DNA of 32,000 nt from Pseudomonas sp. GCEP-101 (GTDB lineage: Bacteria; Pseudomonadota; Gammaproteobacteria; Pseudomonadales; Pseudomonadaceae): NCBI RefSeq assembly GCF_025133575.1, contig NZ_CP104011.1, forward strand, positions 3,138,965 to 3,170,964, in the 5' to 3' direction. The position numbers and the translations under genes were made by a program. Below the pieces are notes generated by a model, which searched no databases, was not told the origin of the DNA, and was given only the letters and a program-made list of their open reading frames with translations. Numbering within the stretch: the stretch's first letter is position 1; every line of letters starts with the position of its first letter. Of the stretch, positions 8,265 to 30,507 are shown in pieces.

Positions 8265-8275
8265 TAGGGCTGCAC

Positions 8276-8351: not shown

Positions 8352-8404
8352 GATCGCTGCGGCGGTGTCCGGACTGGCATGAAACCCCGAGGGTAATTCG
8401 CACC

Positions 8405-8463
8405 TTGTAGGAGCGGGCCATGCCCGCGAACGGCGGACGAAGTCCGCGTTCAACCTCCTGCAC
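8405..8463. repeat. REP-like palindromic element (copy 2)
   Basis: Same 24-mer as copy 1 at 8406..8429. The matching ctcctgca arm is at 8455..8462. Confidence 0.6.
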
Positions 8464-8478
8464 CGACTTCCCGCAGAC

Positions 8479-8513
8479 AAACAAAAACGCCCTCTCCACA
8501 GGGAGAGGGCGTT
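8479..8513 (-). terminator. Rho-independent terminator after the DoxX gene
   Basis: 12-bp perfect stem aacgccctctcc/ggagagggcgtt, loop acag. On the minus strand it is followed by tttttgttt. Confidence 0.75.
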
Positions 8514-8542
8514 GCGGGTCTAGCAGACGAATGGCCAGCCGA

Positions 8543-9058: not shown

Positions 9059-9138
9059 GGCACACCTCGAAGGCGGAGTCGTGGGCAGGGGATCAGCGGC
9101 CGGGCGCAGGTCAGGCCCGGTCGTGGCAGGCATAGGAG

Positions 9139-9777: not shown

Positions 9778-9901
9778 GGCGGGCTCCTTGGAGGAACGCG
9801 GCGGGCGGGGTGCCGCCGCTGTTCGTGGAGCCATCCTGGGGGCAGGGCTTATCCCGGATGTGTCCGGGGACAGGCGTCTTGTATCGCTCTGTACAAACCG
9901 C

Positions 9902-16485: not shown

Positions 16486-16517
16486 TTCTGGAGCGGGCGA
16501 AGGGAATCGAACCCTCG
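16486..16517. repeat. attL: 32-bp direct repeat containing a duplicate of the tRNA-Gly 3' end
   Basis: ttctggagcgggcgaagggaatcgaaccctcg is identical to 30335..30366. Identity breaks on both sides. Confidence 0.85.
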
Positions 16518-16608
16518 AAGATGTAGTGTTAGAGCATCCCAGTGAGTATCGTTAGGGGGAATGCAGCCGCCTGCCATGTTCATTTAATGCCATTGTGTCC
16601 CCTCTATT

Positions 16609-16626
16609 TCGACACTTTTTCGACAC
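16609..16626. repeat. 18-bp motif tcgacactttttcgacac (left arm copy), candidate integrase arm-type site
   Basis: Identical to 30254..30271 and in the same orientation. About 91 bp inside attL. Confidence 0.5.
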
Positions 16627-16646
16627 AGAATCCCGGCCCAACTCGT

Positions 16647-17717
16647 CTATTTGAGTACCAAAATGGGGTGCGCCCGTTCCCTAGGGTGGCCAGGGAAGCT
16701 TGAAAAGCAAATATTGCTATTGGCTGCAGCGCTAGGTCTGGTTGGGCCGTATACGCTTTCCATACTGAAGAAAACAGATTTTTTATCGTTCTCCGCGAAC
16801 CCACTAAATCCATTCTGAATAAGATTGGTAACTGTGGCCTCTTCTCGTTCTGTTCCTAAATAGCATAAGTCTTGGCACATTTGAGCGAGTTGAAGAGCTG
16901 TAGGTCTTTTCTCGGCCTCGTAGGCTAAGCAACTATCTACAATTCTTTGCAGTTCTTCGGACAGCGGTTTGAATTGGGGGTTGGAGGTCATAAATGCCGG
17001 CCACGGTTTTCGATCCTTGGTCTTAACATTAACCGCCGCATCTAGGTATAAACCAAAAGGGTGTTCGCCAGTTAATAGAAGGAACATCATTGCGCCAAGG
17101 GACCAAATGTCTACTGGTTTTTCAGTCCGATCACCTGCCTTTCTGAACATCATTTCAGGAGCCATAAATGGAAGGGCTCCTTTAATTGTTCCTGATGTTG
17201 AGTTGGTGAAGTCCCCCTTTCTATGTGCGTCCTCGAAAACTTCTTCAGTTAAGGTGGCGATACCAAAATCTGTGATCTTTAATTCGTATAAATTCACGCC
17301 GTGGGAGGTGATGATATTGCTTGGTTTTAAGTCTCTATGAATTACACCTGCTCTATGCGATGCCAGTATGCCTTTAGCTAGGTGATGAAGAACGTGTGCT
17401 GCTAAGTGGGGGTCAAGGAATCCAAATTTCTTTAACTTCGCGTCAAGGGTTTCCCCTTCAACAAACTCTTCAATCAAGAAGAATTGCTCGTCTTCTTCGA
17501 TGTAGTCTAATGTCTTTGCAACATTGTGATTGTTGATTTTTGCCGCAATAATAGCGCTGTTCTTGAATCGTTTTTCGGCTTGCCCGGCTTGTGGAGTTTT
17601 TAGCGCGACGTGCATTCCTAGTAGCTTATCGTTTGCGAGATATACATCTTGCATGCCGCCACTGCCGATATGTTTTATTACTTGGTATCTATTAGATATC
17701 AGAAGGTCTTTTTTCAT
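16647..17717 (-). CDS. Hanks-type Ser/Thr protein kinase with a C-terminal cold-shock/OB-like tail
   Basis: Motifs GSGGMQDVY (G-loop), VALK, HRDLKPSN, DFG and FMAPE. SD ggaggt is upstream. The start overlaps the stop of the upstream kinase gene (TAATG). AT-rich. Confidence 0.9.
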   Translation of the reverse strand: MKKDLLISNRYQVIKHIGSGGMQDVYLANDKLLGMHVALKTPQAGQAEKRFKNSAIIAAKINNHNVAKTLDYIEEDEQFFLIEEFVEGETLDAKLKKFGFLDPHLAAHVLHHLAKGILASHRAGVIHRDLKPSNIITSHGVNLYELKITDFGIATLTEEVFEDAHRKGDFTNSTSGTIKGALPFMAPEMMFRKAGDRTEKPVDIWSLGAMMFLLLTGEHPFGLYLDAAVNVKTKDRKPWPAFMTSNPQFKPLSEELQRIVDSCLAYEAEKRPTALQLAQMCQDLCYLGTEREEATVTNLIQNGFSGFAENDKKSVFFSMESVYGPTRPSAAANSNICFSSFPGHPRERAHPILVLK

Positions 17718-18772
17718 TATGGCATTACCTCCGGATTAGACACGTCGAAAGTTATAAATCTTCTGCTAGATCCTGTGCCGAATGTCAGGACGCAGCAGTG
17801 AGGCAGAGCTTCACCATTTGCGATATTTCTATTGTTGGCGGTGACTTGTCCGGATTGGGATTTGACTATGAATTGATAGCCGTCATAGTTAATACTTATT
17901 TCCCCGAGTGATGCGATTTTTACGTTGACGTTAGTCGAGTCTTTATTCAGTTCGTACGTGGCTCCGTTTGCAACTAACAGTGCTCGATGCTTATTGTGAA
18001 GCAAGTGACGATTTAGAGTTTTCTCTATTTCGCTAATGTGGGGGCGCTTTTGTGTGTCATGGCTGAGGCAATCTTCAAGTAAACCTATAATGTCGGAAGG
18101 TATTCCTTTGAGATATTCATTCAGCTCTCCCGGTTCTATTTTTCCCGGCGGGTAAGCTGTGAGCGTTGCCGGGATTCGCTTATCCTTTTTCAGCGCAAGC
18201 GCGGTTATTGCGAAGGCGTATACATCAATCGAGTTATCGAAGCTGACATCACTCTTTTTCCACAATTCCGGAGCCATAAAAATAGGGGTGCCAATGGCGT
18301 TAACTGTAGCTGCGTCCTCGCCATGCCTCCGGGAAAGTCCGAAGTCGAGAATCTTCAGATTTCCACTGGAGTCAATTTTTATGTTGGAAGGTTTGATGTC
18401 TCGGTGGATAATTCCCGAAGCATGTATGGCTGAGAGTCCGCAAGCTATTTGCCAAAGTGTTTTCAAATATTCATTGTCTAAGCTTTGGCAGCCGGGTGTG
18501 AGAGTGTCTCCATCGATAAATTCTAGAATTAGTGCCTGGTTTGTGTTTCCGTCTTCTTTTATCTCAATTATGTCGTAAAGCTGAACAACGTGCCTTGAGC
18601 GAATTTGAAGAAGGGCTTTTTGCTCATCTAGCAGTCGACGGGCCTCTTCGCCCTTTTTTAGGACTTTGAGGATGACTTCTCTGTTGAGGTGGGTGTCGGT
18701 GCATTTATATATTTCACCCATTCCGCCGGCAGTCAAAGGGGCGGATAGTTCATATCTACTTGGAAGAATCAT
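17717..18772 (-). CDS. Hanks-type Ser/Thr protein kinase with a C-terminal FHA-like tail
   Basis: Motifs GGMGEIYK, VILK, HRDIKPSN, DFG and FMAPE. ATG 18772, preceded by aagga at 8 nt, is preferred over GTG 18778. Overlaps the PP2C 3' end by 17 nt. Confidence 0.9.
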   Translation of the reverse strand: MILPSRYELSAPLTAGGMGEIYKCTDTHLNREVILKVLKKGEEARRLLDEQKALLQIRSRHVVQLYDIIEIKEDGNTNQALILEFIDGDTLTPGCQSLDNEYLKTLWQIACGLSAIHASGIIHRDIKPSNIKIDSSGNLKILDFGLSRRHGEDAATVNAIGTPIFMAPELWKKSDVSFDNSIDVYAFAITALALKKDKRIPATLTAYPPGKIEPGELNEYLKGIPSDIIGLLEDCLSHDTQKRPHISEIEKTLNRHLLHNKHRALLVANGATYELNKDSTNVNVKIASLGEISINYDGYQFIVKSQSGQVTANNRNIANGEALPHCCVLTFGTGSSRRFITFDVSNPEVMP

Positions 18773-19880
18773 CAGCACTATCCTTATGCTCTATATCCAT
18801 TTCAATTACGATTTGAAGATCTTCATCTTTTGGTGCTTCAACTTTTGGAAGCTTTGTCTTCTTTTTTGCCTTGCTTTTTCTGTTCTTGTTTGGGCTAGGT
18901 CTTTGGTCGTTGTCAGGCGGAGTTTTAGCTTCCGGTTCGTTACCAATTTCGACTGGCAATGCTGGCGTAGAGCTAGGCGCCGGTGGTTGTCTTTCTATAG
19001 GACGGAGTTCATTTGGTGAATGATTTCTCACCTCATCTTTGATCCAAGCAATGTGAAGTTCACTGAATGGGTCAAGGATTTGAATGGAGGATTCATCTTT
19101 TGTGATGAGTTCTTTTGCATCTTGTAGAGAAACGACTGCGCCAGAAGCATTGTCAGGAGCACCTAGCCAGCGAGCGAGAGTCCCCAGTCGCTGAGCAGCT
19201 TGATAGATATCCGCAGAGTTTATGAAGATTGAAGAAAACATGCTCTCTTCAGGGAAATGAATGCCATCAGTCGTCAAGAGGAAGCGGTTATAGGTGTTAT
19301 TAATGAAGCTAATGTGAGGCCGTATTCCTGGGCCCATTCCCATGAACTGAAGTAGCTCTCGGCCATGACCACCTACTGCTTCTGCTAAAGAATCATCTGT
19401 CGTCAGTCTGCGTAGTTGTCTAGGTGACTCAATCGTCTCGGCATAAATTCGGCTATCTCCGACATTAACCGAAAATGTTCCATGTTTTTCTGTTATTAGT
19501 AATGCTGAAAGAGTTGCGCCGCCGGCTCCACCGGAAAAATCGTAAACACAGTCGTTAGAGTCTATGGTCGACTGCCGCAACCTTTCCATTTCTGGGCGGT
19601 GCCGGTATTTTATTAGCGAATTGAAGAAGGAGGCTATTGCTCTAGTAGCACACTCTGCTCCATCCTTCATTCCACCCATTCCATCCGAAATGGCAATCGC
19701 TAAAAAGCCACCGTCATTTTTTTCGTTCCCGCTAACTTTTAAGCAGGCAACGCGGTCTTGGTTCTGTGATCTCTTTAAACCAATGTCCGTAAATAGTGCG
19801 ATGTTTTTTCTTGCTGTCAGTCCACTGCTCTTGTCCGGGACATCTCTAGACAGCCACTTAATTAATGTACTATTCAACAT
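18756..19880 (-). CDS. PP2C-family Ser/Thr phosphatase with a Lys-rich disordered tail
   Basis: Motifs RSQNQDR, SDGMGGMKDG, VGDSRIY and LLTTDG (metal-binding Asp residues). The C-terminal 90 aa are low complexity (KNRKSKAKKKTKLPK). No SD precedes its ATG. Confidence 0.9.
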   Translation of the reverse strand: MLNSTLIKWLSRDVPDKSSGLTARKNIALFTDIGLKRSQNQDRVACLKVSGNEKNDGGFLAIAISDGMGGMKDGAECATRAIASFFNSLIKYRHRPEMERLRQSTIDSNDCVYDFSGGAGGATLSALLITEKHGTFSVNVGDSRIYAETIESPRQLRRLTTDDSLAEAVGGHGRELLQFMGMGPGIRPHISFINNTYNRFLLTTDGIHFPEESMFSSIFINSADIYQAAQRLGTLARWLGAPDNASGAVVSLQDAKELITKDESSIQILDPFSELHIAWIKDEVRNHSPNELRPIERQPPAPSSTPALPVEIGNEPEAKTPPDNDQRPSPNKNRKSKAKKKTKLPKVEAPKDEDLQIVIEMDIEHKDSADDSSK

Positions 19881-19881
19881 A

Positions 19882-19977
19882 TCAATGGCTTCGATGAAAG
19901 TGGGCGAAATTTAGATGGTCGTGCTGAGTTAAGCAGAGGGGCAAAGGGTTTTTAAGTGATTCGTGGTAGCTAGGCAT
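19882..19977 (-). CDS. Candidate 31-aa His-rich upstream ORF translationally coupled to the PP2C gene
   Basis: Not in the supplied track. aaggag lies 9 nt before ATG 19977. Translation: MPSYHESLKNPLPLCLTQHDHLNFAHFHRSH. The TGA stop ends 1 nt before the PP2C ATG. Confidence 0.35.
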   Translation of the reverse strand: MPSYHESLKNPLPLCLTQHDHLNFAHFHRSH

Positions 19978-20046
19978 TTAATTACACTCCTTGTGCTTAA
20001 TTCCCTTTTTTGACGTACCAACGCAGTGCCACTGTCCGTGTTAGCT

Positions 20047-20316
20047 CTATCCCGCGCCGGGTACGGCTAATTTGGCATCTGCTTCCTCGTAGCCAGGGGC
20101 TATCTGACCTCGAGCCGGATCTACGTCACCTTTCAGAAGCCATAGCTCGTATTGAGGAAACACTCGTAACAGCTCTTCCAAGTCTTCTATGCGGGCTTTG
20201 ACCTTGCGGTTAGTCGCGACGGTCTGCCAGCGCTGTCGCTCTGTAATAGCGGTGGTTTCGGCCAGTTTTGTCGCACCGATAAACCTTACAAGGGTTCTAA
20301 CCCGCTCTTCTATCAT
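20047..20316 (-). CDS. Pf repressor C-like immunity protein (Pf4r-like)
   Basis: 89-aa protein divergent from the excisionase-like gene across an AT-rich operator region. This is the position and size of Pf4r in Pf4. The call rests on synteny more than on motifs. Confidence 0.65.
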   Translation of the reverse strand: MIEERVRTLVRFIGATKLAETTAITERQRWQTVATNRKVKARIEDLEELLRVFPQYELWLLKGDVDPARGQIAPGYEEADAKLAVPGAG

Positions 20317-20421
20317 TCCAAAACGCTCTAAGAGATAATAAATAATTTATTGATGAATTATTTATCAGTGCTAGGATTGGCCTGTGATAAATAATTTATT
20401 AGAGCTTCTCGTCCTAATGGA
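20317..20421. promoter_or_regulatory. Divergent immunity/excision control region with three ATAAATAATT operator-like sites
   Basis: 14-bp direct repeat ataaataatttatt at 20338..20351 and 20387..20400. Perfect 12-bp inverted repeat aattatttatca (20356..20367) / tgataaataatt (20385..20396). Confidence 0.6.
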
Positions 20422-20658
20422 ATGAATAGTGACGGAACGAGCATGGAACTGGAAGAGCTGTCTCCCAATGCCCTGGTAGGGCCGCAACAGGACGTAGAGC
20501 CCATCGAGAAGTGGGCGGAACGCAACGGCGTCACCTTCGGCACGGCCCGCGCTTGGGTGTACCGGGGCGTCCTGCCCTCGGTGAAGCTCGGCAAGCTTCG
20601 CATGGTGAATAGCGCGCTGCTTCGTACGTGGCTGCTGGAACAGGAGTGGACGGCATGA
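20422..20658 (+). CDS. Excisionase / MerR-like HTH DNA-binding protein (XisF-like)
   Basis: The pattern IEKWAERNGVTFGTARAWVYRGVLPSVKLGKLRMV matches the excisionase-type winged HTH. Divergent from the repressor, as in Pf4. The start could be 20422 or 20443. Confidence 0.7.
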   Translation: MNSDGTSMELEELSPNALVGPQQDVEPIEKWAERNGVTFGTARAWVYRGVLPSVKLGKLRMVNSALLRTWLLEQEWTA

Positions 20659-21305
20659 AGGCTGAGATTCGTGCCGAGTTTCTGCGGACGCTGACTCTTT
20701 TTTGCTGCTCTGATTTGCAGCTCGGCACTTGGGCGCGGGATCACAACGCCAGTTGCTATGGCCGTCTGCTGGGATTTATCGACGCTCTCGAAATGGCTGG
20801 GGAGATCGGATACGACGAGTTCTCCCGCATGGAAGCCCTCGTTTTTAACGTGATCGGATACAGCGGCCGTCCATTCCCCAGCGCTCTCAATGCTGGTCCT
20901 GTGATGCCGTCTTGGGAGGCGTTCAAACGCTGCCAGAAAGCAGGGGAGGCGATAGCTGATGATTCCCTCGAACCGCCCGCACCAACCGCACGCCCCGGAC
21001 TGCGACTGCTCTGTCTGTTGGTCCCGTCGCGAACTGGCGAAGCCCGTAGTCTTCCAGTCCACACCCTGCACCGAGTGCCGCCCTACGCGAGTCTTCACGG
21101 TCGTTACCACGATGGCGCTGGTCGCGGGAGTGTGGCGCTCGATCCACTCGACGTACCGGGTGGAACCGGGTTTTACCTGCGCGAAACACATGCCCGCGCT
21201 CCGTCCGCCGAAGTACTGGCACGTTGTGTACGACAGCGGCAAACCGACTCCCTTCGTGCCGATCCGCGAGCCCTTCGAGTTGGAGGCCTGAGCCATGCAC
21301 ACTGA
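20655..21305 (+). CDS. Pf hypothetical protein; 3' boundary uncertain
   Basis: ATGA overlap with the xis stop. The first 100 codons read like a real helical protein (MKAEIRAEFLRTLTLF...). After about 20960 the alternative frame has much better GC3, so the true end is unclear. Confidence 0.35.
   Translation: MKAEIRAEFLRTLTLFCCSDLQLGTWARDHNASCYGRLLGFIDALEMAGEIGYDEFSRMEALVFNVIGYSGRPFPSALNAGPVMPSWEAFKRCQKAGEAIADDSLEPPAPTARPGLRLLCLLVPSRTGEARSLPVHTLHRVPPYASLHGRYHDGAGRGSVALDPLDVPGGTGFYLRETHARAPSAEVLARCVRQRQTDSLRADPRALRVGGLSHAH
20959..21291 (+). CDS. Pf hypothetical Cys-rich protein (possible zinc ribbon: CDCSVC ... CTEC)
   Basis: Strong GC third-position bias by eye (roughly 85%). It runs in the +1 frame relative to 20655. 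Confidence 0.55.
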   Translation: MIPSNRPHQPHAPDCDCSVCWSRRELAKPVVFQSTPCTECRPTRVFTVVTTMALVAGVWRSIHSTYRVEPGFTCAKHMPALRPPKYWHVVYDSGKPTPFVPIREPFELEA

Positions 21306-21522
21306 CGCCGCCTTTAGCCTTACCTTGCTGTTCGCTCTCCTCACCTGTGTGGGCTTTCCGCTGATGTGCGTGGCCCACGAAATTTCGAAGTGGGCCGACC
21401 GCAACAACTGCACTCAGGCCAAACCGGTCCAGGGCCGCCGCACCGGCTTGTCCGAACGCGCTTTTCCGTTCGGACAAACGGAGCGCCGGGCGAAGCGCAC
21501 CCTTGACCGTCCCCCGCCCTGA
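21295..21522 (+). CDS. Pf hypothetical small membrane protein
   Basis: ATG lies 4 nt after the previous stop. Contains an N-terminal hydrophobic helix FSLTLLFALLTCVGFPLMCV. GC3 bias is good. Confidence 0.45.
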   Translation: MHTDAAFSLTLLFALLTCVGFPLMCVAHEISKWADRNNCTQAKPVQGRRTGLSERAFPFGQTERRAKRTLDRPPP

Positions 21523-21745
21523 ATAGCCTCCGCTCGGGAGTAAGGGGCAGCACCACCGCCCCGCGCTCCTGAGCCCTCGGCGGCGAGAGCGGGATGACAA
21601 GGGCAGCGCCCTTGGTGTTTCCAATCTCGCCACCCGCACCCAAGCAAAACCCAGGCACCACCACACCCGCTGAAAGACGGCCACCAACGCGCCCAATTTG
21701 CAGCAGCGGGCCAACTCATGCCCAAAAAAGGCAAAGGAGCTTCAG

Positions 21746-22159
21746 ATGAACATGTTTGCAACCACCGGCGGAATCGTTGAACTGTGGGTCACCCAGACCG
21801 ACACCTTCACCTCCAAAACCTCCGGCGAAATCTTCGCCAGTGTCCAGGCGATTTCGCCGATACCCGAAGGCGCACGTGGCAATGCCCGTGGCTTCGAAAT
21901 CACCCAGTACGACATCGAGCCGACCCTGCTCGACGGCATCGTCTTCGAAGGCTCCCCGGTGCTGTGCAAGTTCGCCACCGTGGTCCGCCCGACCAAAGAC
22001 CGCTTCGGCAACACCAAGAACACCCAGGTGCTGACCGAACTGCTCGCCACCGGCAAAGACGCTGCCGCGCCGGCTCCCGCCCGCCCGGCTGCTCCCCAGC
22101 AAACCCAGCGCCCCTCCCAGCCCGCCGCCGAGAAACCCGGCGACTCGGCCAAGAGCTAA
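21746..22159 (+). CDS. Pf ssDNA-binding protein (gene 5 protein homolog)
   Basis: SD aaaggag. MNMFATTGGIVELWVTQTDTFTSKTSGEIFASVQAISPIPEGARGNARGFEI closely matches the Pf1 gene 5 protein as I recall it. It has a Pro/Ala/Gln-rich tail. Confidence 0.9.
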   Translation: MNMFATTGGIVELWVTQTDTFTSKTSGEIFASVQAISPIPEGARGNARGFEITQYDIEPTLLDGIVFEGSPVLCKFATVVRPTKDRFGNTKNTQVLTELLATGKDAAAPAPARPAAPQQTQRPSQPAAEKPGDSAKS

Positions 22160-22174
22160 TTCGGGAGCGCTGCC

Positions 22175-22261
22175 ATGACTAAGTACCTCTCCCTGTTCGC
22201 TGTGGGCCTTGCCACTGGCTACCTGTGGGGCTGGGTCGATGGCGTGGCGCGCTTCCTATGA
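22175..22261 (+). CDS. pfsE: PfsE-like 28-aa superinfection-exclusion peptide
   Basis: Not in the track. SD gggag lies 8 nt upstream. [28 protein letters not shown] carries the aromatic Y-x-WGW motif of Pf4 PfsE (PA0721). Same position as Pf1 ORF30. Confidence 0.7.
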
Positions 22262-22470
22262 ATTTCCTCGCCTGTGACGGCAGCTGGGCGGTCAGCGCCG
22301 ATGGTTCCGCCATCTGCACCGGCACCCTGCACGTAGTCACCAGCGAGGAAATGCAGAGCGAGTTCGGCTCTGCACTCACCTGGGATCAGGTCGCGGAACT
22401 GCGTGGCGAAGTCCTCACGCTGTTCTGCATCGCCTTCGGCTTCCTGGTCCTGAAACGACTGCTCAAGTAG
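22258..22470 (+). CDS. Pf conserved hypothetical protein (Pf1 ORF71 / PA0722 position)
   Basis: ATGA overlap with the pfsE stop. 70 aa with a C-terminal TM helix [13 protein letters not shown]. Confidence 0.65.
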
Positions 22471-22483
22471 CGAGGTAGTACCC

Positions 22484-22726
22484 ATGAAACAGCTCAAGAC
22501 CCACCTGCAGAACCGCGCCGCCGGCTACGGCCGTCGCGCCCGCCAAGCCGTGGTTGGCATCGCCGCTGTCGGCTCCACCCTGGCGGCCACCGCCTATGCC
22601 GCTGTCCCGGCAGAAGCCACCGGCGCCCTGACCACTGCCGGCGACGACACCAACACCATCGGTTGGGCCGTCTTCGCCGTGCTGGTTGCCGCCGCGGCGT
22701 TCAAGTACATGCGCCGCGCCCTGTAA
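22484..22726 (+). CDS. coaB: Major coat protein (g8p, CoaB)
   Basis: SD gaggtag. Signal peptide ending AYA, then an acidic N-terminus, a hydrophobic core (IGWAVFAVLVAAAAF) and a basic C-terminus (KYMRRAL). This is the classic inovirus g8p layout. Confidence 0.85.
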   Translation: MKQLKTHLQNRAAGYGRRARQAVVGIAAVGSTLAATAYAAVPAEATGALTTAGDDTNTIGWAVFAVLVAAAAFKYMRRAL

Positions 22727-22754
22727 GCCCACCCGGCCTAACAGCCGAAGCACC

Positions 22755-22784
22755 GAACCCCGCTCCGGCGGGGTTCTTTCTTCT
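22755..22784 (+). terminator. Terminator/attenuator immediately after the major coat gene
   Basis: 9-bp stem gaaccccgc/gcggggttc, loop tccg, then tttcttct. Its position is analogous to the post-gVIII terminator of Ff phages. Confidence 0.7.
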
Positions 22785-22796
22785 GGAGTCCGAACA

Positions 22797-22868
22797 ATGT
22801 CCGTTCAATGGTTCGTCCTCATCGTCTCCACCGTGGCCTTCGCCGTGGTCCTGTTCGGGCGGGTCTGA
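22797..22868 (+). CDS. 23-aa hydrophobic peptide (g7p/g9p-like virion cap candidate)
   Basis: SD ggag lies 8 nt upstream. MSVQWFVLIVSTVAFAVVLFGRV. The stop is 2 nt before the next ATG. Confidence 0.5.
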   Translation: MSVQWFVLIVSTVAFAVVLFGRV

Positions 22869-22870
22869 CC

Positions 22871-24402
22871 ATGGGCCGTTTCCTGATCCTGCTGCTTGCC
22901 GCCCTGGTCGCCACGCCGACGATTGCCACCGAGCGAGTGAAGGTAGATCCCTTCATCAAGGCCGGCCCGGGCTACAGCGCCGCCAATGGCTCGATCACAG
23001 GCTACGTGCCCTCCAAGTCCAACGCCGATCTTCTGCTCGAAGCCGAGCGCAAAGGTTGGATGGGGTCTGGCACGGCGAAGACGCCTGTGACCATCAAGCC
23101 CAAGGTTACTGTTCCCGTCGGTGGGCTCTCTTCCAGGTTGAAAGCTGGCCTGAAGACAAATGCTGGTCAGCTTGTTCTTGGGGCGGCTGTTTCCGGCGCT
23201 GTCGCCGCTGTGGGCTGGGTCATGTCGGACGACAACACCAAGATTCAGAAAAAAGAGGTAATGCCTGTCGATACGGTCGCCGACAAGAACCAGTATCAAT
23301 GGCTGGTCCTTCTGGAACTAATGGCACCGCTGGCACCTTTCCATCTCCGCAAGCGTATTGCGCGTATCGCGATACCGTAATTAATTACAACCAGAACGGT
23401 CCGGATAAGGTTGTCGTTACAAAGGTCAACGACACCCACTACACCTGTGCGGTTCTCGGCGCTCAGTTCGGTGGTGTAACCACAGACGTCTGGCGTACTG
23501 GCACTACTTGTTATGGCGGCACCGCATACAGCGGCACTCTTGCTGCCTGTGCCACGACTACCAAGGCCGATCTTTCACCAACTGATTGGGACGCCGTTGA
23601 TCCATGGGTTGCTGCCCAGTCCGCCACGTGGCTTAAGGGGCTTCTGAGCGAGGTTTGCGGCGGTACGTATGGCGGTGTCAATCCTCAGTCCTGTTACGAC
23701 GGTCTTCAGAAACAGAGTGCCGCCATCATTTCTGGGCCGACCTCCGTCCAGGGGCCGAAGCAAACCACCACCGGCACTTACAACCGGCCGGACGGCACCC
23801 TCGGCAACACCTCCACGACAACCAACACCACCTACAACATCCGCTACGGCGATACGTACTTCGACTACGACACCGTCACCACCACGACAACCTATCAGGA
23901 CGGCCAAAAGACCGGCGAGCAAACCACCTCCGATGAAGGTGAGCCGCAGGAAAAGCCCGAGGACGAAAAGGACAAGGAGGAAGAGGAAAAGCCCGAACGC
24001 CTCGCCTCTGGCGAACCTTGCGATGTGCCGCTGTCCTGCTCGGGCGACGCCATCGACTGCGCAGTGCTGACCCAGGAAAAAGCCCTGCGCTGTGCCTACG
24101 AAAAGCAGAGTGACTACGAGAAGCACGAGGCCGACATTAAGGCCGCCGTCACCGGTGCCAAGTTCGAAATGGACGACAGCACCGAGATTCAAATCCCGTC
24201 CTTCATCAACCAGGGCACGCGCTTTCTCCCGGCGTCCTGCCCGGCTGACAAGACCTTCTCCCTCAGAACCAACGGCGGCCGCACCTTCGCCGTGACCTAT
24301 GAGCCGCTGTGCGCGGCTGCCACTGACCTTGGCTACCTGATCGTCATTGCGGTCGGGGCTTTCTGCGTCCTCTACGTCGGACGCTCCCTCGGAGGTGAAT
24401 GA
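22871..24402 (+). pseudogene. g3p-like minor coat / receptor-binding protein (CoaA-like) split across two frames
   Basis: The signal peptide MGRFLILLLAALVATPTIA is in the frame of 22871..23380. The Thr/Gly-rich linker, acidic linker and C-terminal membrane anchor (LIVIAVGAFCVLYVG) are in the -1 frame, which ends at 24402. That second frame has no signal peptide or SD of its own (first ATG at 23299). Confidence 0.6.
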
Positions 24403-24728
24403 TGCAATACGCCTTTATCGTCCAGATGCTACTGATCATCGCCGTCCCCATCGTGAAGATGGTCCTGCGCGCCATCGGCTTCGCGGTCGTCAGCTACGTC
24501 GGCTTCAACCTGCTGATCGACATGGCCCGTAGTTACCTGATGTCGCAGATGGGCAATGTCGCCGTGCCGATCCAGCAGATCCTCGGCCTCGCGAAGATTG
24601 ATGTGGCCATCAACATGTACCTCGCGGCCGTCACCACTCGTGCGCTCATGGCGGGCTGGCTCAAGGCACAGGACCGTCTCCGTCGGCAGGTGTGGAACCC
24701 GCCGGGCCGCGACTACATCGACGCCTAA
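24399..24728 (+). CDS. g6p-like minor coat protein (DUF2523-like)
   Basis: Overlaps the g3p stop (ATGATG). The start is probably 24402 on SD spacing. Contains two or three TM helices. Position matches Pf4 PA0725. Confidence 0.7.
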   Translation: MMQYAFIVQMLLIIAVPIVKMVLRAIGFAVVSYVGFNLLIDMARSYLMSQMGNVAVPIQQILGLAKIDVAINMYLAAVTTRALMAGWLKAQDRLRRQVWNPPGRDYIDA

Positions 24729-24740
24729 GGGGGACCGGTC

Positions 24741-25922
24741 ATGCTCTACATCCGCACCGGTAAGCCCGGCCACGGCAAAACCCTCAACACCATCCGCGAA
24801 GTGGACGCCAAAGCCAAAGCCGAAGGCCGCATCGTCTACTTCCACAACGTCGCCGGCCTCAAGCCCGAGAAGCTGGAGGCGGCCTGGTTCGAGTTCGAAG
24901 ACCCGTTCAAATGGTACGAGCTGCCCCAGGACGCAATCATCGTGGTGGACGAGGCTCAAGGCTGGTTCGGCGCCCGCGATCCGCGCAACCGCCCGCCGGA
25001 GCACATCACCCGCTTCGAAACCATGCGCCACCAGGGCCACGAAGTGCATCTGGTGACGCAGGACCCGCGCTATATCGATGTCCACTTGCGCCGCCTGTGC
25101 AATGGGCACATCCACTACTGGCGGGTCTTCAAGAGCCAGCAACTGCTGCGCTTCGAGTCCGAGGCGGTCATCGAGGCAGTCGAGAAAAAGACCTCCTTTA
25201 AGGACGCCGACAAGACGGTCATCAAGCTCGATAAGAAGTACTTCGGGGTTTACACGAGCACCCAGGCGCAGCACCACTTCAAGTTCAAGCCGCCGAAGAA
25301 AATGATCCTGGCGTTGGCGGTGATCGTCGGCGCCGGCTTCATGGTGTATCGCGCCTTCGAGCGCTACCAGCAGGGCAGCAAGCCGGCAGAAGCGGCGGCG
25401 ACCACCATCGCACCGAAGGACCAGCCCGGCATGGTCGATCAGGCCAAGTCGATGGTGGGCTCGCTGATCAGCCCCAGCGGCGGCGAAGCCCCGAAGGCGG
25501 TCACCCCCGAGCAGTACATCGAGCAGCGAAAACCCCGCATCGCGGATTTGCCAGCCTCGGCCCCGGTGTATGACCAGCTCAACACCCCGGTCAGCAAGCC
25601 GCGCATCTACTGCCTGTCCACCAGTGATCCCAAGCTGGTGGAGCGGCGACCGCCGGAGACGGTGAAGAACGGCCAGTCGTGCCAGTGCTACACGCAGCAG
25701 GCGACCAAGTTCGCGACCAGCTTCGAGTTCTGCATCAGCGTGGCGCGCAACGGCTACTTCGATCCCACCTTGCCCGACCGAGGCACCGGCCCTGACGCGC
25801 GCATGGCGCAGCCGTCACCTCCACCCCCGATCTACCCGAGCGCTCAGCCAACGGCCAGCAATGAGCCCAGCGGGCCCACGGTGACGGTCATTCCCTATGA
25901 GAAAGGCAAGTTCTTGTGGTGA
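24741..25922 (+). CDS. Zot-like assembly ATPase (g1p)
   Basis: Walker A GKPGHGKT, Walker B IIVVDEAQ, a central TM helix (ILALAVIVGAGFMVY) and a periplasmic C-terminal domain. Confidence 0.9.
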   Translation: MLYIRTGKPGHGKTLNTIREVDAKAKAEGRIVYFHNVAGLKPEKLEAAWFEFEDPFKWYELPQDAIIVVDEAQGWFGARDPRNRPPEHITRFETMRHQGHEVHLVTQDPRYIDVHLRRLCNGHIHYWRVFKSQQLLRFESEAVIEAVEKKTSFKDADKTVIKLDKKYFGVYTSTQAQHHFKFKPPKKMILALAVIVGAGFMVYRAFERYQQGSKPAEAAATTIAPKDQPGMVDQAKSMVGSLISPSGGEAPKAVTPEQYIEQRKPRIADLPASAPVYDQLNTPVSKPRIYCLSTSDPKLVERRPPETVKNGQSCQCYTQQATKFATSFEFCISVARNGYFDPTLPDRGTGPDARMAQPSPPPPIYPSAQPTASNEPSGPTVTVIPYEKGKFLW

Positions 25923-26064
25923 GCCCGCCAGGGCCGTTTTGCGGTTTGAGCCGACGTAGGAGGCCACCCGCAAACGGCCCGGCGGGGCGCGGCCGACGAC
26001 CCTGTAACACGTCGGATAACCCACTGAGCACAGTTTCGTTTCGTATCTATTTGGAGTGTTTCCA

Positions 26065-27360
26065 ATGACCAAGCCACAGCATCAAGTTCGCGTCACCCTC
26101 AAACCCGGTGGCGAAATTTACGAGTCGCCCGAAGGGCGTTTGTTCTTCGACGACAAGCTGGCCAAGTTCACCGATCTATCCGGCGTGCGCCTGCTTCGTT
26201 GCGGGGTGGACACGGTTCGGCAGCTCTACAACGGTCTGATCCGCCCCGAGATAATGGCGATCTTTGATGAGCCGGAAGACATTGTGGAGTTCGCCGGTTA
26301 CCAGTGGGCCAAGGGCAGGGTAGGGCGCGATTCCGGTTACCAGTACCGGCTACAGAACGCAGATATGGGCCTGATCCTGCTGATCAAGAATCACAACGTG
26401 AAGCTCGAAAACATCGGCCCGCACCTCAAGATTGAAGTGTCTCCGCACGCCCTGGATGGTGCCGATCCTTCGATCCTGCAAGGCGTACTGGATGACCTCG
26501 CCGCTGGTGTGCTTGCCGCCTGCGAAGTGAATCAGTGCGCCGTACACCTCGCACTCGATGTGCAGGGCTGGACGCCTTCCAGCGACCTCGTAGAGCGTAT
26601 GCGTTGCCGTTCGCACCGGGTGCGCCAGATCACCGGTATCGACCGTATCGAGTTCGACGGTAACGCCTCGGTATACGGGCGTGGTGAAACCTTCATGTTC
26701 GGCTCGGCCAACGGCCTTCAGCTCTGCATCTACAACAAGACGCTCCAGGCCCGGAGCACGGACAAGCTCGACTACTGGGAAAACGTTTGGGCATCCCTCA
26801 ACGGCGATCCTTTCGGCGATGGCGAGCCCGCCTATAACCCGCTGGAAACGGTGTGGCGCATCGAGTTTCGCTTCCACCACTCGGTAGTACAGCAGTTCTC
26901 CGAAGGCTCCCGGATGGCCTCTGGTGAGGTAATCGGCTGCCGTACCTACTCGGGTCTTTGCCCGCATCTGCAAGGACTGTGGGAATACGCTTGCGACAGC
27001 TTCCGCCTGTTGTTGGATAACCCCAAGTGGTTCGATCCGTTCTGGTCGCTGATCACCCTGGATACCAAGGTGCAGGTAGAGGCCGATCCGCTCATTGAGC
27101 GCACGGAATACCGCCGCTACTACAAGACCGCTCAGGGCTTTTCCGGCAAGAACTGCGAGATGTTCCTGGGACAGTTCGCCAGCCTTATTGCACGGGAGCG
27201 CGTACCACCAAAAAAAGCCCTTGAGGTCGGGAGAACGCTTCCCTTCTGGCATGTGATTGAAGATCACTACACCGCCAAGGGCTACAGCACTCGCGACCTC
27301 GAACGTCACATCATTGGGCTCATCAACGACCGGTACTTGAAGCGGGGGTACGCGATCTAA
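26065..27360 (+). CDS. Replication initiation protein (gene II/X family, PA0727-like)
   Basis: ggag lies 8 nt before ATG 26065 (the track starts at GTG 26056). 431 aa. Synteny places it between zot and int. The family call comes from position and size, plus RIEFRFHH-type blocks. Confidence 0.8.
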   Translation: MTKPQHQVRVTLKPGGEIYESPEGRLFFDDKLAKFTDLSGVRLLRCGVDTVRQLYNGLIRPEIMAIFDEPEDIVEFAGYQWAKGRVGRDSGYQYRLQNADMGLILLIKNHNVKLENIGPHLKIEVSPHALDGADPSILQGVLDDLAAGVLAACEVNQCAVHLALDVQGWTPSSDLVERMRCRSHRVRQITGIDRIEFDGNASVYGRGETFMFGSANGLQLCIYNKTLQARSTDKLDYWENVWASLNGDPFGDGEPAYNPLETVWRIEFRFHHSVVQQFSEGSRMASGEVIGCRTYSGLCPHLQGLWEYACDSFRLLLDNPKWFDPFWSLITLDTKVQVEADPLIERTEYRRYYKTAQGFSGKNCEMFLGQFASLIARERVPPKKALEVGRTLPFWHVIEDHYTAKGYSTRDLERHIIGLINDRYLKRGYAI

Positions 27361-28342
27361 TGAGCATCACCAAGCTCCCCGATGGCCGTTGGTTTGTTGA
27401 TGTCGAGCCGATAAAGGGAAAGCGTTTCCGGAAGCGGTTCAAGACCAAAATGGAAGCGCAGCAGTTCGAGGCCAACGCGCGCCAGAAGTGCGCCGAGAAT
27501 CCGAGTTGGACGATTAAGCCCAAGGATCGCCGCAAGCTCTCCGAGCTAGTCGAACTTTGGTATGAGCTTCACGGCCAGACCCTTGCCAATGGCAAGCGCT
27601 GTGTGGCGATTCTGCGGCTGATAGCGAAGGACCTGGGTGACCCTATAGCGGCAACTCTGGAGCCGGCCAAGTGGCCCGTGTGCGCTCCTTGCAAGTCGCT
27701 AAAGGCATGTCGGGCAAGTACGCCAACAACCGCCTTGGCTACCTCAAGTCGATGTACAACGAGCTACGACAGCTGGGGACCATCGACTACGAGAATCCCG
27801 TTGGACGCATGCGTCCGTTGAAGCTGCAGGAGAAGCCGCTGTCATACCTGACCAAGCATCAGGTTTCAGAGCTGCTGGCCGCGCTCGATGCCCGCACTAC
27901 GTCGCCGCATCCGAAGATGGTCGCTCGCATCTGCCTCGCAACAGGTGCTCGATGGGGAGAAGCTCAGGCTCTGACACCGGAGCGGTTGAAAGGCAATACG
28001 GTCATCTTCGCCAACACCAAGTCTAAGCGTGTTCGCTCGGTGCCAATCTCCGAAGCCTTGGCCAAAGAGATTCGTCAGCATTGGCAGGCCCATGGTCCGT
28101 TCACCAACTGCCTCGGCGTGTTTCGCATCCTGCTGCTGTCCACGTCGATCAAGCTCCCGAGAGGGCAGGCCAGCCACGTGCTACGCCATACGTTCGCTAG
28201 TCACTTCATCATGAACGGCGGGCACATCGTGACGTTGCAGCACGTTCTGGGGCATGCATCACTTTCGATGACTATGCGGTATGCTCATCTATCGGAAGAG
28301 CATTTAAAAGATGCAGTATTGTTGAATCCACTCCTGCGTTGA
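27360..28342 (+). pseudogene. Tyrosine recombinase (Pf integrase) interrupted by a -1 frame change near 27665..27675
   Basis: The N-terminal SAM-like part occupies frame 27360..27821. The catalytic part occupies frame 27671..28342, with R (ATGARWGEA), HVLRHTFAS, and LGHASLSMTMRYAHL with the catalytic Y. Joining across gccaagtggcccgtg restores a continuous integrase. Confidence 0.8.
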
Positions 28343-28388
28343 TTATGATGCGTCTGAAGTCTATATCGTGAAATAGTAAATCCTGTTC

Positions 28389-30218
28389 ATGGAGCGAATG
28401 GATATGAGTGCTGAGTTTGCAAGTCTTTCTGTAATCATTCGTGCGGCTTCGCCATTAATTAAAGATATTTATAATGGTGCAAAGGGGGAGGTTAAAAAAT
28501 GCCTCGAGAAATGGGGGGCGAGCTCGTTTCCCTCAAATCTGTCAGACAGTCTAGAGTATCTTGATTCGGTCAGAACTATTTGGAGTCCTGAGAAGAACGT
28601 TTCGTTGTCTGGGTTTTATTACCCTAGTAAGTTTGATATCAATGGTTGTGCGACAGAGGTGTGTAGAGTAACTGATCTTGGTAAGGGGAGTGTGGTAGTT
28701 CAAGGAATTGTTGGGCAGGGAAAGTCAGTATTTCTCAGGTATCTCGCGATCCAGGAGATATTAAGCTCTGATCGGCCAAGGATGCCTGTTTTTTTGGAGC
28801 TGAGAAGGCTGAGTAAGTCGTTTGGGTTGCTTGACGGGCTGAAGGCAGTACTATCCAGTTATGATTTAAGTGCGACGGATGAGGTTTTTAAGTATTTGGC
28901 TGAATCGGGGAAGATTGTTATTTTGCTCGATGGGTTTGATGAGCTTGATTCTGAGGTGGTTAAGGATACAGCTATAGTAATAGAAGGCTTGGTAAGGGCG
29001 TATCCTGGTTTGCAAGTAGTGGCTACGTCTAGGCCGCGAAACGAAATCCAAAAGATGAGCTGCTTTCGGGTGATGGATATATTGCCTTTGGAGAGTTCTG
29101 ACTATGCTGGATTTTTGGGTAAACTTGGGGTTGATGTTGTAAAGGCTCATTCGATAGTTGAGGCTATAGAGTCCAGTCCGAGTAAGGTCTCCGAGTTGAT
29201 TAGTACGCCGTTAATGCTGACTCTGGTGGTTTTTGTATACCAGTCTGAAAATCACATCCCAGCAGAGCTTCCGGAGTTTTTTGAGCGCCTCTTCTATACA
29301 GTATTCACTCGGCACGATAAATTGAAGCCGATATTTGATCGTCAGCACTATACGAAGTTGTCAGAGCGGAAGCTCCAAAGCTTATTTGAGGCGTTCTGCT
29401 TCATGAGTATGCAGTTAGGCAATGGTAGGTCTCTGAGCTCTGCTCAATTCTCGAAAGCATTTGATTTGGCGCAAGAGTATACGGATGGATCAGATTGTTA
29501 TGAGGTTGATTTTCGAAACGACATAACAAAGGTTTCTTGTTTGATGCTTGAGGAAGGGTTCGGCGATGTGACTTTTCTTCATAAAAGTATTGCTGAATAT
29601 CATGCTTCGGCGTTTGTTAAGAATTCGGATGATGTATTTGCAAAGCGATTTTACGAGCACGCGGCGAAAAACTGGTCTATGTGGGAGGCGGCTCTTTCTT
29701 TTTTAAAAGTTATAGATTCCTATCGATTCGCTAAGTATTTTGCTGTGGAGCAACTGATTGGTGCTATAGCGTTGGCAAGGTTGTTAGACTCTTGTGTGGA
29801 TGCGGTTAGCTTTGTTCGGTCTCTTCCAGAGTCGATGGGAGGGTTGTCGGCTAATTATGAGCAGACTTTTGATCCAGTCTATTTTTCCTATGAAAGCGTG
29901 GGTGCATGGACTGCGCCTGATAACTATTATGATGAGGATTTGGTGGATGTTATAACGGATGTTATTGCTGAGATAGTTCCAGACTCTTTGTCGGTGCATG
30001 AGATTTCAGAGTTGCGTAATTCTGGCGTTCGAGTGCTGGGGGTTGATGAAGACCTTATTGAGATTGGTCTTATAGATATTTTTAAAGTGTGGGGGTTTGA
30101 AAGGGTTAAAGAGAGTGTTGCTCAGCATTTGGCTGATCTTATTGTTCGGCTGGATCAAGCAAAAGTTCTTGCCGAGAAATTAGACAAGCGTGTGTCAATC
30201 TTTGATAAGAGACTGTAG
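28389..30218 (+). CDS. NACHT/STAND NTPase (bacterial NLR-like), right-end prophage cargo
   Basis: Walker A GIVGQGKS (aa 106-113), Walker B IVILLDGFDEL, then VVATSRP. A helical C-terminal region of about 260 aa follows. AT-rich. The likely true start is ATG 28404 (ggag 8 nt upstream). Confidence 0.8.
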   Translation: MERMDMSAEFASLSVIIRAASPLIKDIYNGAKGEVKKCLEKWGASSFPSNLSDSLEYLDSVRTIWSPEKNVSLSGFYYPSKFDINGCATEVCRVTDLGKGSVVVQGIVGQGKSVFLRYLAIQEILSSDRPRMPVFLELRRLSKSFGLLDGLKAVLSSYDLSATDEVFKYLAESGKIVILLDGFDELDSEVVKDTAIVIEGLVRAYPGLQVVATSRPRNEIQKMSCFRVMDILPLESSDYAGFLGKLGVDVVKAHSIVEAIESSPSKVSELISTPLMLTLVVFVYQSENHIPAELPEFFERLFYTVFTRHDKLKPIFDRQHYTKLSERKLQSLFEAFCFMSMQLGNGRSLSSAQFSKAFDLAQEYTDGSDCYEVDFRNDITKVSCLMLEEGFGDVTFLHKSIAEYHASAFVKNSDDVFAKRFYEHAAKNWSMWEAALSFLKVIDSYRFAKYFAVEQLIGAIALARLLDSCVDAVSFVRSLPESMGGLSANYEQTFDPVYFSYESVGAWTAPDNYYDEDLVDVITDVIAEIVPDSLSVHEISELRNSGVRVLGVDEDLIEIGLIDIFKVWGFERVKESVAQHLADLIVRLDQAKVLAEKLDKRVSIFDKRL

Positions 30219-30253
30219 CTTCTCCACATGGGAGGGGCGAGGTAATGTTTTTC

Positions 30254-30271
30254 TCGACACTTTTTCGACAC
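30254..30271. repeat. 18-bp motif tcgacactttttcgacac (right arm copy)
   Basis: Identical to 16609..16626. About 63 bp inside attR. Confidence 0.5.
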
Positions 30272-30284
30272 CTTACCGGCGTCC

Positions 30285-30324
30285 AAAAAGCAAAACCCCC
30301 GAAACGCTAGGCATTTCAGGGGTT
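30285..30324 (-). terminator. Phage-supplied terminator hairpin now following the intact tRNA-Gly
   Basis: Stem aacccccgaaa/tttcaggggtt (one mismatch). On the minus strand it is followed by ttttgcttttt. Confidence 0.55.
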
Positions 30325-30334
30325 CGGCAGGGTG

Positions 30335-30366
30335 TTCTGGAGCGGGCGAAGGGAATCGAACCCTCG
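30335..30366. repeat. attR: 32-bp direct repeat overlapping the tRNA-Gly 3' end
   Basis: Identical to 16486..16517. Confidence 0.85.
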
Positions 30367-30411
30367 TCATGAGCTTGGGAAGCTCAGGTAATGCCATTAT
30401 ACGACGCCCGC
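30338..30411 (-). tRNA. tRNA-Gly (anticodon CCC)
   Basis: The reverse complement reads GCGGGCGTCGTATAATGGCATTACCTGAGCTTCCCAAGCTCATGACGAGGGTTCGATTCCCTTCGCCCGCTCCA. It has a 7-bp acceptor stem, anticodon stem TGAGC/GCTCA with loop TTCCCAA, a GGTTCGATTCC T-arm and an encoded CCA. Confidence 0.95.
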
Positions 30412-30507
30412 TTGGGGGTGCCTTTTTACCAGAAGGGCGAGGCTTAGTGAAGCCTTCTGCGGTCAGGCGTGCCGAGCGGGTGGCTGGTGTGAACAGGCTG
30501 GCGCATG

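Follow-up and report, generated by a model that had tools for sequence, protein, structure and literature searches.

A clade-14-type NACHT gene, probable antiphage cargo of a Pf-like filamentous prophage in Pseudomonas sp. GCEP-101

This report concerns a gene for a NACHT protein in a Pf-like filamentous prophage of Pseudomonas sp. GCEP-101. The prophage lies in a stretch of 32,000 nucleotides (contig NZ_CP104011.1, positions 3,138,965 to 3,170,964 of the forward strand), which is called the window, and the product of the gene is called the window protein. Profile scores, a profile alignment made with hhalign, matching domain boundaries and a matching order of predicted secondary-structure elements together identify the window protein, at the level of sequence comparison, as a divergent bNACHT01-like protein, i.e., one in which a NACHT module is followed by a SNaCT domain. 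By analogy with its characterised relatives, it is probably a single-protein antiphage sensor of the type found in clade 14 of the bacterial NACHT (bNACHT) proteins. A first-pass annotation of the same DNA had proposed a NACHT/STAND defence sensor carried as cargo at the right-hand end of a prophage; this proposal is supported by homology to a defence-type family and by the position of the gene in the Pf-like prophage.

The gene, its domains and their kinship with clade 14

The longest open reading frame (ORF) at this locus runs from 28389 to 30218 on the forward strand and has 609 amino acids (aa). Its existence, its richness in AT (44-47% GC in the gene vs 58-65% GC in the flanks) and its placement between the integrase gene and the right attachment site had all been noted in the first-pass annotation and were confirmed. 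The likely start codon is the ATG at 28404, as indicated by the spacing of an upstream GGAG, by the NCBI record WP_259753272.1 (Pseudomonas sp. GCEP-101; annotated with 604 aa and 100% identical to the window protein) and by the aligned homologues, all of which begin at the Met matching this ATG. The ATG at 28398, which would give a clade-14-like N-terminus beginning with MD, was rejected as the start: GGAG is just 3 nucleotides (nt) away from it, and the homologues align at the Met of 28404. Residue numbers below are those of the 609-aa ORF unless stated otherwise. The gene and its parts are as follows (coordinates, strand, feature and evidence):

28391..28394 (+): Shine-Dalgarno-like GGAG, 9 nt upstream of ATG 28404, read from the sequence
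28404..30218 (+): NACHT gene from the likely start, 604 aa plus stop
28404..28568 (+): N-terminal extension, about 55 aa, predicted effector (alignment, residue frequencies, hydropathy, AlphaFold2 helices)
28569..29723 (+): NACHT module, ORF residues 61-445 (Pfam, invariant columns, Foldseek, profile against NLRC4)
29574-29588 (+): FLHKS with conserved His398, inside the NACHT module (invariant column)
29724..30182 (+): hypervariable SNaCT-like C-terminal domain, residues 446-598 (conservation, hhalign, secondary-structure order)
30183..30215 (+): conserved C-terminal tail DKRVSIFDKRL; family motif K-[RK]-x-L-I-F (alignment)

The three motifs read by the first-pass annotation all translate where it had placed them: Walker A (GIVGQGKS) at 28704-28727, Walker B (ILLDGFDEL) at 28920-28946 and TSRP, with the sensor arginine, at 29025-29036. 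Walker B holds the signature D181-G-F-D-E185, so that the window protein has both sequence marks of the NACHT subclade, Walker A GxxxxGK[ST] and Walker B D[GAS]hDE, the latter as defined by Kibby et al. (bioRxiv 10.1101/2022.07.19.500537). The Pfam model NACHT (PF05729) matches residues 102-238 with 39.7 bits, i.e., above its gathering score of 26.7, and the columns that are invariant in the family (K112, D181, D184/E185, R215 and H398) are all intact. At E<=1, Pfam found no further domain in the ORF except overlapping P-loop families: there was no domain in residues 1-100, no enzymatic N-terminal domain and no repeat domain. The first-pass annotation had counted about 95 aa ahead of the P-loop and seen no effector there. 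The distance is closer to 100 aa, of which only about 55 lie outside the NACHT module, and the lack of an enzymatic domain is borne out by Pfam.

An AlphaFold2 model built with the family alignment as input (predicted local distance difference test, pLDDT, 88.9; predicted template modelling score, pTM, 0.77) predicts a NACHT/NLR-type fold including the winged-helix extension, with His398 in FLHKS. When the model was compared with the PDB by Foldseek, the top 50 matches were all NLRC4, NLRP, NOD2 or NAIP, and the lowest E was about 2e-9. A profile of the family searched against PDB sequences reached only NLRC4 (E=1e-5) and NLRP3, and a single-sequence search of the same sequences with the window protein returned nothing relevant. 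A fold search of viral proteins in BFVD was uninformative: one NLR-like siphovirus protein, the rest generic AAA+ clamp loaders. The predicted N-terminal helices span residues 13-30, 33-38, 40-43 and 47-59; the predicted C-terminal strands span 487-492, 498-504, 533-535, 549-553 and 556-560, and are followed by a long terminal helix. The earlier description of the C-terminal region as helical is therefore not upheld by the model, which contains strands; its description as free of repeats agrees with Pfam.

Conservation is distributed unevenly along the protein. In an alignment of 55 family members (A1), with the frequency of the commonest residue as the measure, the N-terminal extension scores 0.51, the nucleotide-binding domain 0.63, the helical and winged-helix part 0.70, residues 446-598 only 0.32 (median identity to the query 16%) and the extreme C-terminal tail 0.60. 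Residues 446-609 have the properties of a SNaCT domain, namely a short, repeat-free, fast-evolving C-terminal extension of about 160 aa. The SNaCT-like domain is predicted to be the sensor of phage proteins, and the tail, by its likeness to the bNACHT11 tail (residues 633-639), may take part in oligomerisation.

The family to which the window protein belongs is large. A search of 5.8 billion proteins found 557 relatives, the best 120 of which are almost all 600-630 aa long and include proteins from Pseudomonas, Undibacterium, Variovorax, Janthinobacterium, Sphaerotilus and many metagenomes. When 1.84 billion cluster representatives were searched exhaustively, 702 of them, each standing for a cluster at 50% identity, matched at E<=1e-30; of the matches listed, those with the best scores mostly have a length of about 600 aa, with the aligned part generally ending near residue 450. 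Scores of the window protein and of tested bNACHT proteins with profiles of the two families are given below (test sequences from Kibby et al. Table S2, clade numbers from their Table S1):

bNACHT11, 02, 01, 12 (clade 14): window-family profile 188-200 bits; clade-14 SNaCT profile 636-682 bits
bNACHT23 (clade 14): window-family profile 171 bits; clade-14 SNaCT profile 384 bits
Window protein: clade-14 SNaCT profile 206-237 bits
bNACHT04 (clade 14): window-family profile 105 bits; clade-14 SNaCT profile 136 bits
bNACHT16 (clade 4): window-family profile 43 bits; clade-14 SNaCT profile 38 bits
bNACHT13 (clade 8): window-family profile 30 bits; clade-14 SNaCT profile 11 bits
bNACHT25 (clade 6): no match with the window-family profile; no match with the clade-14 SNaCT profile

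With the clade-14 profile, the window protein falls between bNACHT23 and bNACHT04, both of which Kibby et al. assign to clade 14, and the reverse profile ranks the proteins alike. Aligned by hhalign with 44 clade-14 proteins, the family gave a probability of 100% (E=8e-62, 526 columns), and query residues 46-586 were paired with residues 47-588 of bNACHT12, i.e., through the C-terminal domain. In direct BLASTP comparisons, the window protein is 30% identical to bNACHT12 over residues 56-445 of the 604-aa protein (E=3e-43), 29% identical to a bNACHT02-like protein (E=4e-40) and 29% identical to P0129 (E=2e-46), a bNACHT01-like protein with one difference from bNACHT01 over the 399 available residues. 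The full-length bNACHT12 used here was WP_021519735.1, from an E. coli plasmid, and the bNACHT02-like gene likewise came from an E. coli plasmid. bNACHT01 is listed by Kibby et al. (Table S1, bioRxiv 10.1101/2022.07.19.500537) with 609 aa, NACHT at 65-445 and SNaCT at 449-608; the domain boundaries of the 609-aa window ORF agree with these to a few residues. The AlphaFold2 model of P0129 (pLDDT 84.4) has the same order of secondary-structure elements as that of the window protein: four short helices precede the NACHT core, and in the C-terminal part, helices come first and are followed by a beta-hairpin, another helix, short strands and a terminal helix of 40 residues.

In general build, the window protein resembles the clade-14 proteins bNACHT01, 02, 11, 12 and 23, which are about 600-640 aa long, encoded by a single gene and often found on mobile elements. 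All have an N-terminal extension of about 55-63 aa before a conserved RTIH/KTIW strand, a NACHT module with D-G-F-D-E, a repeat-free, fast-evolving C-terminal domain of about 160 aa and a conserved extreme C-terminus. They differ in their distribution and carriage: the window family occurs mainly in Betaproteobacteria and Pseudomonas, whereas the clade-14 bNACHTs come from Enterobacterales and Vibrionales, and the carrier of the window gene, unlike those of the five proteins named, is a filamentous prophage.

The carriage of two clade-14 genes was observed alongside. The E. coli plasmids pISHS7_3 and pEC012-4 (about 40-46 kb) carry bNACHT02-like and bNACHT12 genes, one of which adjoins hha and an H-NS family gene and the other the YacA/YacB toxin-antitoxin genes and insertion sequence (IS) elements. 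Of 5426 complete E. coli genomes, 18 contained the 5' sequence of bNACHT02, nearly always on a plasmid.

The N-terminal extension and a mechanism by analogy

The first-pass annotation had treated a NACHT protein with a short, non-repeat C-terminus and no recognisable effector as an unusual architecture. It is not: this arrangement defines clade 14, which stands apart from other bacterial NACHT proteins in having no fused effector domains, and several members of which protect E. coli as single genes (Kibby et al. and their Table S2, bioRxiv 10.1101/2022.07.19.500537). Clade 14 is also the most abundant bNACHT clade according to the authors of the study of bNACHT11 (bioRxiv 10.1101/2024.12.17.629029), the work from which the functions of its parts are known. 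The SNaCT domain of bNACHT11 uses beta-augmentation to bind several phage proteins that are unrelated to one another, and this binding leads to an ATP-dependent heptamer, for which the tail (residues 633-639) is required. An N-terminal extension of about 45 aa with the consensus MDPIT is required for defence and for a plasmolysis-type cell death, and the double mutation D2A;P3A abolishes function (bioRxiv 10.1101/2024.12.17.629029). The effector-less NLR-like architecture is thus already explained in the literature, with the short N-terminus as the effector, and is not new.

The window protein likewise has no fused enzymatic effector and a short N-terminal extension, for which the characterised length is about 45 aa. 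Its extension, of about 55 aa, is by analogy with bNACHT11 the likely effector. The first-pass annotation had offered a very short N-terminal helix bundle as one of two possible effectors, and this option fits the closest characterised relatives, both in the extension of bNACHT11 and in the single-gene activity of clade 14.

The two families differ in the residues of this region. The window protein and its relatives (110 sequences) have an uncharged N-terminus in which Ala, Thr and Ile abound, with the pattern M-[SAPLI]-[AILT]-[TAS]-[TA]-A-A-[IAT]-[IA]: the second residue is one of S, A, P, L and I, and the third is one of A, I, L, T and V. The window protein itself begins with MSAEF in its 604-aa form. 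In clade 14, position 2 is D or E in 69% and position 3 is P in 39%, so that M-S/A-A-T-T-A-A-I... in the window family stands against M-D/E-P-I-T in the clade-14 bNACHTs, and the MDPIT/MEPIS-like motif, with its D2 and P3, is absent from the window family. The N-terminus of the window family is more hydrophobic (mean Kyte-Doolittle hydropathy 1.23 vs 0.80 in clade 14) and less charged (0.8 vs 2.3 charged residues in positions 2-13). The Ala/Thr/Ile-rich stretch is followed by a basic residue and then by P-[LIV]-[IV]-x-D-[LI]-Y-x-G-A-K. The conserved [RK]T[IL]W strand, which begins at ORF residue 61, lies 56-57 aa from Met1 in the window family vs 62-64 aa in clade 14.

A mechanism can be drawn step by step from homology to bNACHT11. 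In the lysogen, the window protein would be present as an inactive monomer. On infection, the hypervariable SNaCT-like C-terminal domain would bind at least one protein of the infecting phage, and this binding would permit the NACHT module to form an ATP-dependent, ring-shaped oligomer, in which the conserved C-terminal tail would help to lock neighbouring protomers together. The clustered N-terminal extensions would then kill or arrest the cell, probably by acting at the membrane, before the phage cycle is completed, i.e., the outcome would be abortive infection. No partner gene would be needed, and the NACHT gene would be a self-contained cargo next to the phage attachment site (attP) of a Pf-like inovirus, one that could benefit the host and the chronically resident Pf prophage alike. 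We infer that the mechanism is the same as that of bNACHT11, with a variant effector tip.

Several points weigh against a clade-14-type sensor that works in this way. The window protein is only 26-30% identical to tested bNACHT proteins, and its alignment with clade 14 leaves out the first 45 or so residues. The family is without the acidic position 2 and Pro3, whose double mutation abolishes the function of bNACHT11; it should be added that bNACHT01 (MDIIQ) and bNACHT12 (MDLVF) are also without P3 and still defend (Kibby Table S2, bioRxiv 10.1101/2022.07.19.500537). The placement of the NACHT module in clade 14 is supported by profile-score bracketing rather than by a phylogeny, and the identity of the SNaCT fold is suggested by profile alignment and predicted secondary structure. 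PADLOC and NCBIfam gave the window protein only marginal matches (PDC-S60, E=2e-4; EruA, E=0.022). The first-pass annotation had proposed PADLOC as a check, and the run was made, but it cannot settle the question: PADLOC-DB 2.0.0 gave zero matches for bNACHT12 and bNACHT02, both validated, so that a negative result is uninformative.

The prophage and the contexts of the homologues

The NACHT gene lies inside DNA that is bounded by att repeats and carries inovirus core genes, and the att repeats together with the position of the integrase place it between the integrase gene and attR. The core of the prophage has about 79% nucleotide identity to the Pf phages of P. aeruginosa, and this likeness, together with Pfam, identifies Zot, Rep and Int. 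Its features are:

16486..30366: Pf-like filamentous prophage, 13.9 kb (att repeats, inovirus core genes)
16486-16517: attL, a 32-nt exact direct repeat
16647-19880 (-): KKP-like module at the left end, comprising two Pkinase proteins plus a PP2C phosphatase (Pfam)
24741-25922: Zot (Pfam)
26056-27360: Rep
27360..28342 (+): Pf-type tyrosine integrase in two ORFs, split by a 1-nt deletion near 27667/27668
30254..30271 (+): 18-nt repeat TCGACACTTTTTCGACAC, inside the right prophage end; twin at 16609-16626
30335..30366: attR, the second copy of the 32-nt exact repeat
30338..30411 (-): tRNA-Gly(ccc), the integration target, its 3' end overlapped by attR

The deletion in the integrase gene is of a single base relative to the PfAC08 integrase and leaves the Int_N domain halved between two overlapping ORFs; it reflects either a pseudogene, with the prophage perhaps locked in place, or a sequencing error. 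The copies of TCGACACTTTTTCGACAC sit 63-91 nt from the att core, just within both prophage ends, and the repeat recurs in two related loci described below; it is probably an arm-type binding site, a candidate for the integrase or an excisionase. A degenerate third copy was seen at 16598-16615. The three-gene set at the left end matches the described KKP module (PMC11341870), and no connection between it and the NACHT gene was found beyond their shared prophage. This module lies in an island of 43-46% GC, so that the prophage has two separate low-GC accessory islands, that of the KKP-like module and that of the NACHT gene.

A promoter scan around the NACHT gene found 3 sites vs 3.1 expected, which is not above chance; weak evidence comes from a -35/-10-like pair (28322-28349) and a hairpin resembling a terminator (30229-30256). 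Over the NACHT gene there is a strong positive GC skew of 0.19-0.32, unlike the surroundings, both in the window (28000-30500) and in Pseudomonas sp. ATCC 13867 (locus L005, 8000-9800), which may reflect the composition of the donor lineage. A hairpin with a 15-bp stem and a T-run at 30293-30325 (-), directly downstream of tRNA-Gly within the prophage arm and conserved in ATCC 13867, is probably a tRNA terminator supplied by the phage after integration. An ORF of 351 aa at 20358-21413 (-), between the KKP-like module and the Pf core, has no Pfam match.

The first-pass annotation had stated that in Pf4 the slot between the integrase and attR carries toxin-antitoxin cargo. This holds for the Pf4-type sequence OQ658363.1, in which Phd/YefM and RelE/ParE occupy the slot and are followed by the same flanking transacylase gene. 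The PfiT/PfiA cargo of Pf4, the KKP module of Pf6 and the NACHT gene of the window are all accessory genes in the variable regions that flank attP. PfiT/PfiA and KKP are both tied to defence or lysogeny control, whereas their proteins and mechanisms are unrelated to NACHT.

The neighbourhoods of the NACHT family were surveyed at 51 loci, each representing a species. No conserved neighbour was found, i.e., no gene family occurred in more than 5 of the 51 loci; the most frequent neighbour cluster (5 loci) consisted of short ORFs that overlap the NACHT match at its 5' end and are probably pieces of the NACHT gene itself. None of the 51 loci had a KKP-like triad or inovirus genes, and no co-occurrence of PfiT/PfiA or KKP with the NACHT family was found among them. 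A Ser/Thr kinase lay within the fetched flank at only two loci, both distant (Schlesneria, of the Planctomycetes, and a Holophagae metagenome-assembled genome). Such varied contexts fit a gene that acts singly, which is a matter of genomic compatibility. A tyrosine recombinase was found within 4 kb at 3 of the 51 loci, and the idea that the family is always prophage-end cargo was rejected on this count and on the lack of inovirus genes. Homologues at prophage ends do occur: in P2-like prophages of Pseudomonas, one sits in the slot between the integrase and tRNA-Ser, and in a temperate Vinavirales prophage of Vibrio (PQ189336.1), a homologue of 28% identity (E=1e-42 by tblastn), which is annotated NLR_like_bNACHT01, lies at the prophage end.

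Two homologues are particularly close in context to the window gene. In Pseudomonas sp. ATCC 13867, an intact 609-aa homologue (53% identity) occupies the same chromosomal site (locus L005). Ahead of it stands a 326-nt piece of a Pf integrase gene, from the 3' end (84% identity), and after it come TCGACACTTTTTCGACAC (9856-9873), attR/tRNA-Gly(ccc) and the same alpha/beta-hydrolase gene as in the window. Neither Pf core genes nor KKP lie within 8 kb of this homologue, and the locus (7628-10014) looks like a prophage remnant that has kept only its NACHT cargo. A TonB-dependent receptor gene lies directly upstream of the remnant. The second is IMGVR_UViG_2651869766_000001 (locus L064, 1-11033), an 11-kb Pf-like element with an unbroken integrase ORF of 387 aa. 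Its NACHT homologue (198-2081; 52% identity, 43% GC) lies just after TCGACACTTTTTCGACAC (110-127), on the opposite side of attP, i.e., in the left accessory slot, where the prophage of the window has its KKP-like module; no KKP match was found in the element. These positions suggest a single exchange hotspot that takes in the cargo region to either side of attP. The flanks of the ATCC 13867 locus are 84-85% identical to those of the window vs about 68% in the NACHT gene, counting its conserved part only, and L064 shows the same contrast between closely similar flanks and a much less similar NACHT gene. This points to rapid divergence or to allele replacement in the slot.

Competing explanations and significance

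The first-pass annotation had named the kinase module at the other prophage end as a possible partner in trans. In such a two-part system, the NACHT protein would be only the sensor, and the effector would be supplied by KKP or by a host factor. Pfam indeed found no enzymatic effector domain, the MDPIT motif is absent, and KKP, which is present in the same prophage, is itself a module of defence and lysogeny control (PMC11341870); moreover, host factors can join bNACHT signalling, as with DnaJ, which is reported to mediate sensing by bNACHT25 (PMC12169576). However, the partnership with KKP finds no support in the survey of 51 loci, with its lack of a conserved neighbour or KKP-like triad and its generic kinases in two distant loci, nor in the ATCC 13867 remnant, where the homologue is intact and no KKP lies within 8 kb of it. 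The L064 element gave no KKP match, the P2-like and Undibacterium contexts are without kinases, and relatives in clade 14 work alone in E. coli. An effector in trans is therefore very unlikely. Also unlikely, if somewhat less so, is that the protein serves mainly the phage, by policing superinfecting or co-resident Pf, by regulating Pf production or by acting in an addiction-like manner, with defence against lytic phages secondary. The toxin-antitoxin pair in the same slot of Pf4-type prophages, the control of Pf lysogeny by accessory modules such as KKP and the presence, in two Pf-like elements, of NACHT homologues on opposite sides of attP are all in keeping with such a role; yet most members of the family lie outside prophages (by the counts of recombinases and inovirus genes above), the gene is intact in ATCC 13867 after loss of the Pf core, and the hypervariability of the sensor domain is what one would look for in an arms race against many kinds of invader.

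The protein could also be a STAND NTPase without a role in defence, either a regulatory ATPase or a decaying passenger. No curated defence model matched it above threshold, and the frameshift in the adjacent integrase gene means that the element may be decaying. Against this, the ORF is full-length with all catalytic residues, the family is represented by the 702 clusters described above, with their best-scoring listed members mostly of similar length, the closest characterised relatives are all antiphage, and the negative result of PADLOC carries no information; the explanation is highly improbable. A further possibility concerns the effector and the fate of the cassette: the uncharged N-terminus might be a distinct minimal effector, such as a helix that enters the membrane and makes a pore or funnel on assembly of the NACHT ring, comparable to those of plant CC-NLR resistosomes or fungal HeLo domains, with sensors shuffled by Pf-type inoviruses from one side of attP to the other within a defence cassette that outlives its phage. 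Such outliving is suggested by the ATCC 13867 remnant; taken as a whole, the idea is tentative and rather doubtful. The preferred reading is that of a clade-14-type sensor sharing the mechanism of bNACHT11.

Other known systems offer likenesses at a greater distance. The Avs/AVAST proteins (Avs1-5, Avs7-21) are reported to be like bNACHT-type sensors in being STAND NTPases that bind phage proteins, oligomerise and bring about abortive infection, and they are often single-gene and often prophage-borne. They have large enzymatic N-terminal effectors (nucleases and others) and large repeat-type sensors, neither of which the window protein has, and they belong mostly to non-NACHT STAND clades. The mammalian proteins NLRC4, NAIP, NLRP3 and NOD2 share the NACHT fold with the window protein at a sequence identity of about 13-16%, but the window protein is without their CARD or PYD effector and without their LRR sensor. 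The same mammalian NLRs were the top structural matches of bNACHT11 (bioRxiv 10.1101/2024.12.17.629029).

What is new here is that filamentous Pf-type prophages carry NLR-like defence genes, on either side of attP and alongside KKP. In the literature searched, no report was found that joined NACHT proteins with inoviruses, or NLR_like with filamentous prophage, and two papers on Pf accessory genes made no mention of NACHT. The finding is of some interest for the filamentous-phage carrier, the divergent N-terminal motif and the retention of the gene in a decayed prophage. Retention of the NACHT gene alone in a remnant in a related species is circumstantial evidence of benefit to the host. The window family, a large and divergent subfamily tied to clade 14 in which the N-terminus is without residues essential in bNACHT11, offers a natural comparison for the minimal needs of the effector. 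Pf phages shape the biofilms of Pseudomonas and its chronic infections; defence cargo carried by Pf could therefore affect the outcomes of phage therapy.

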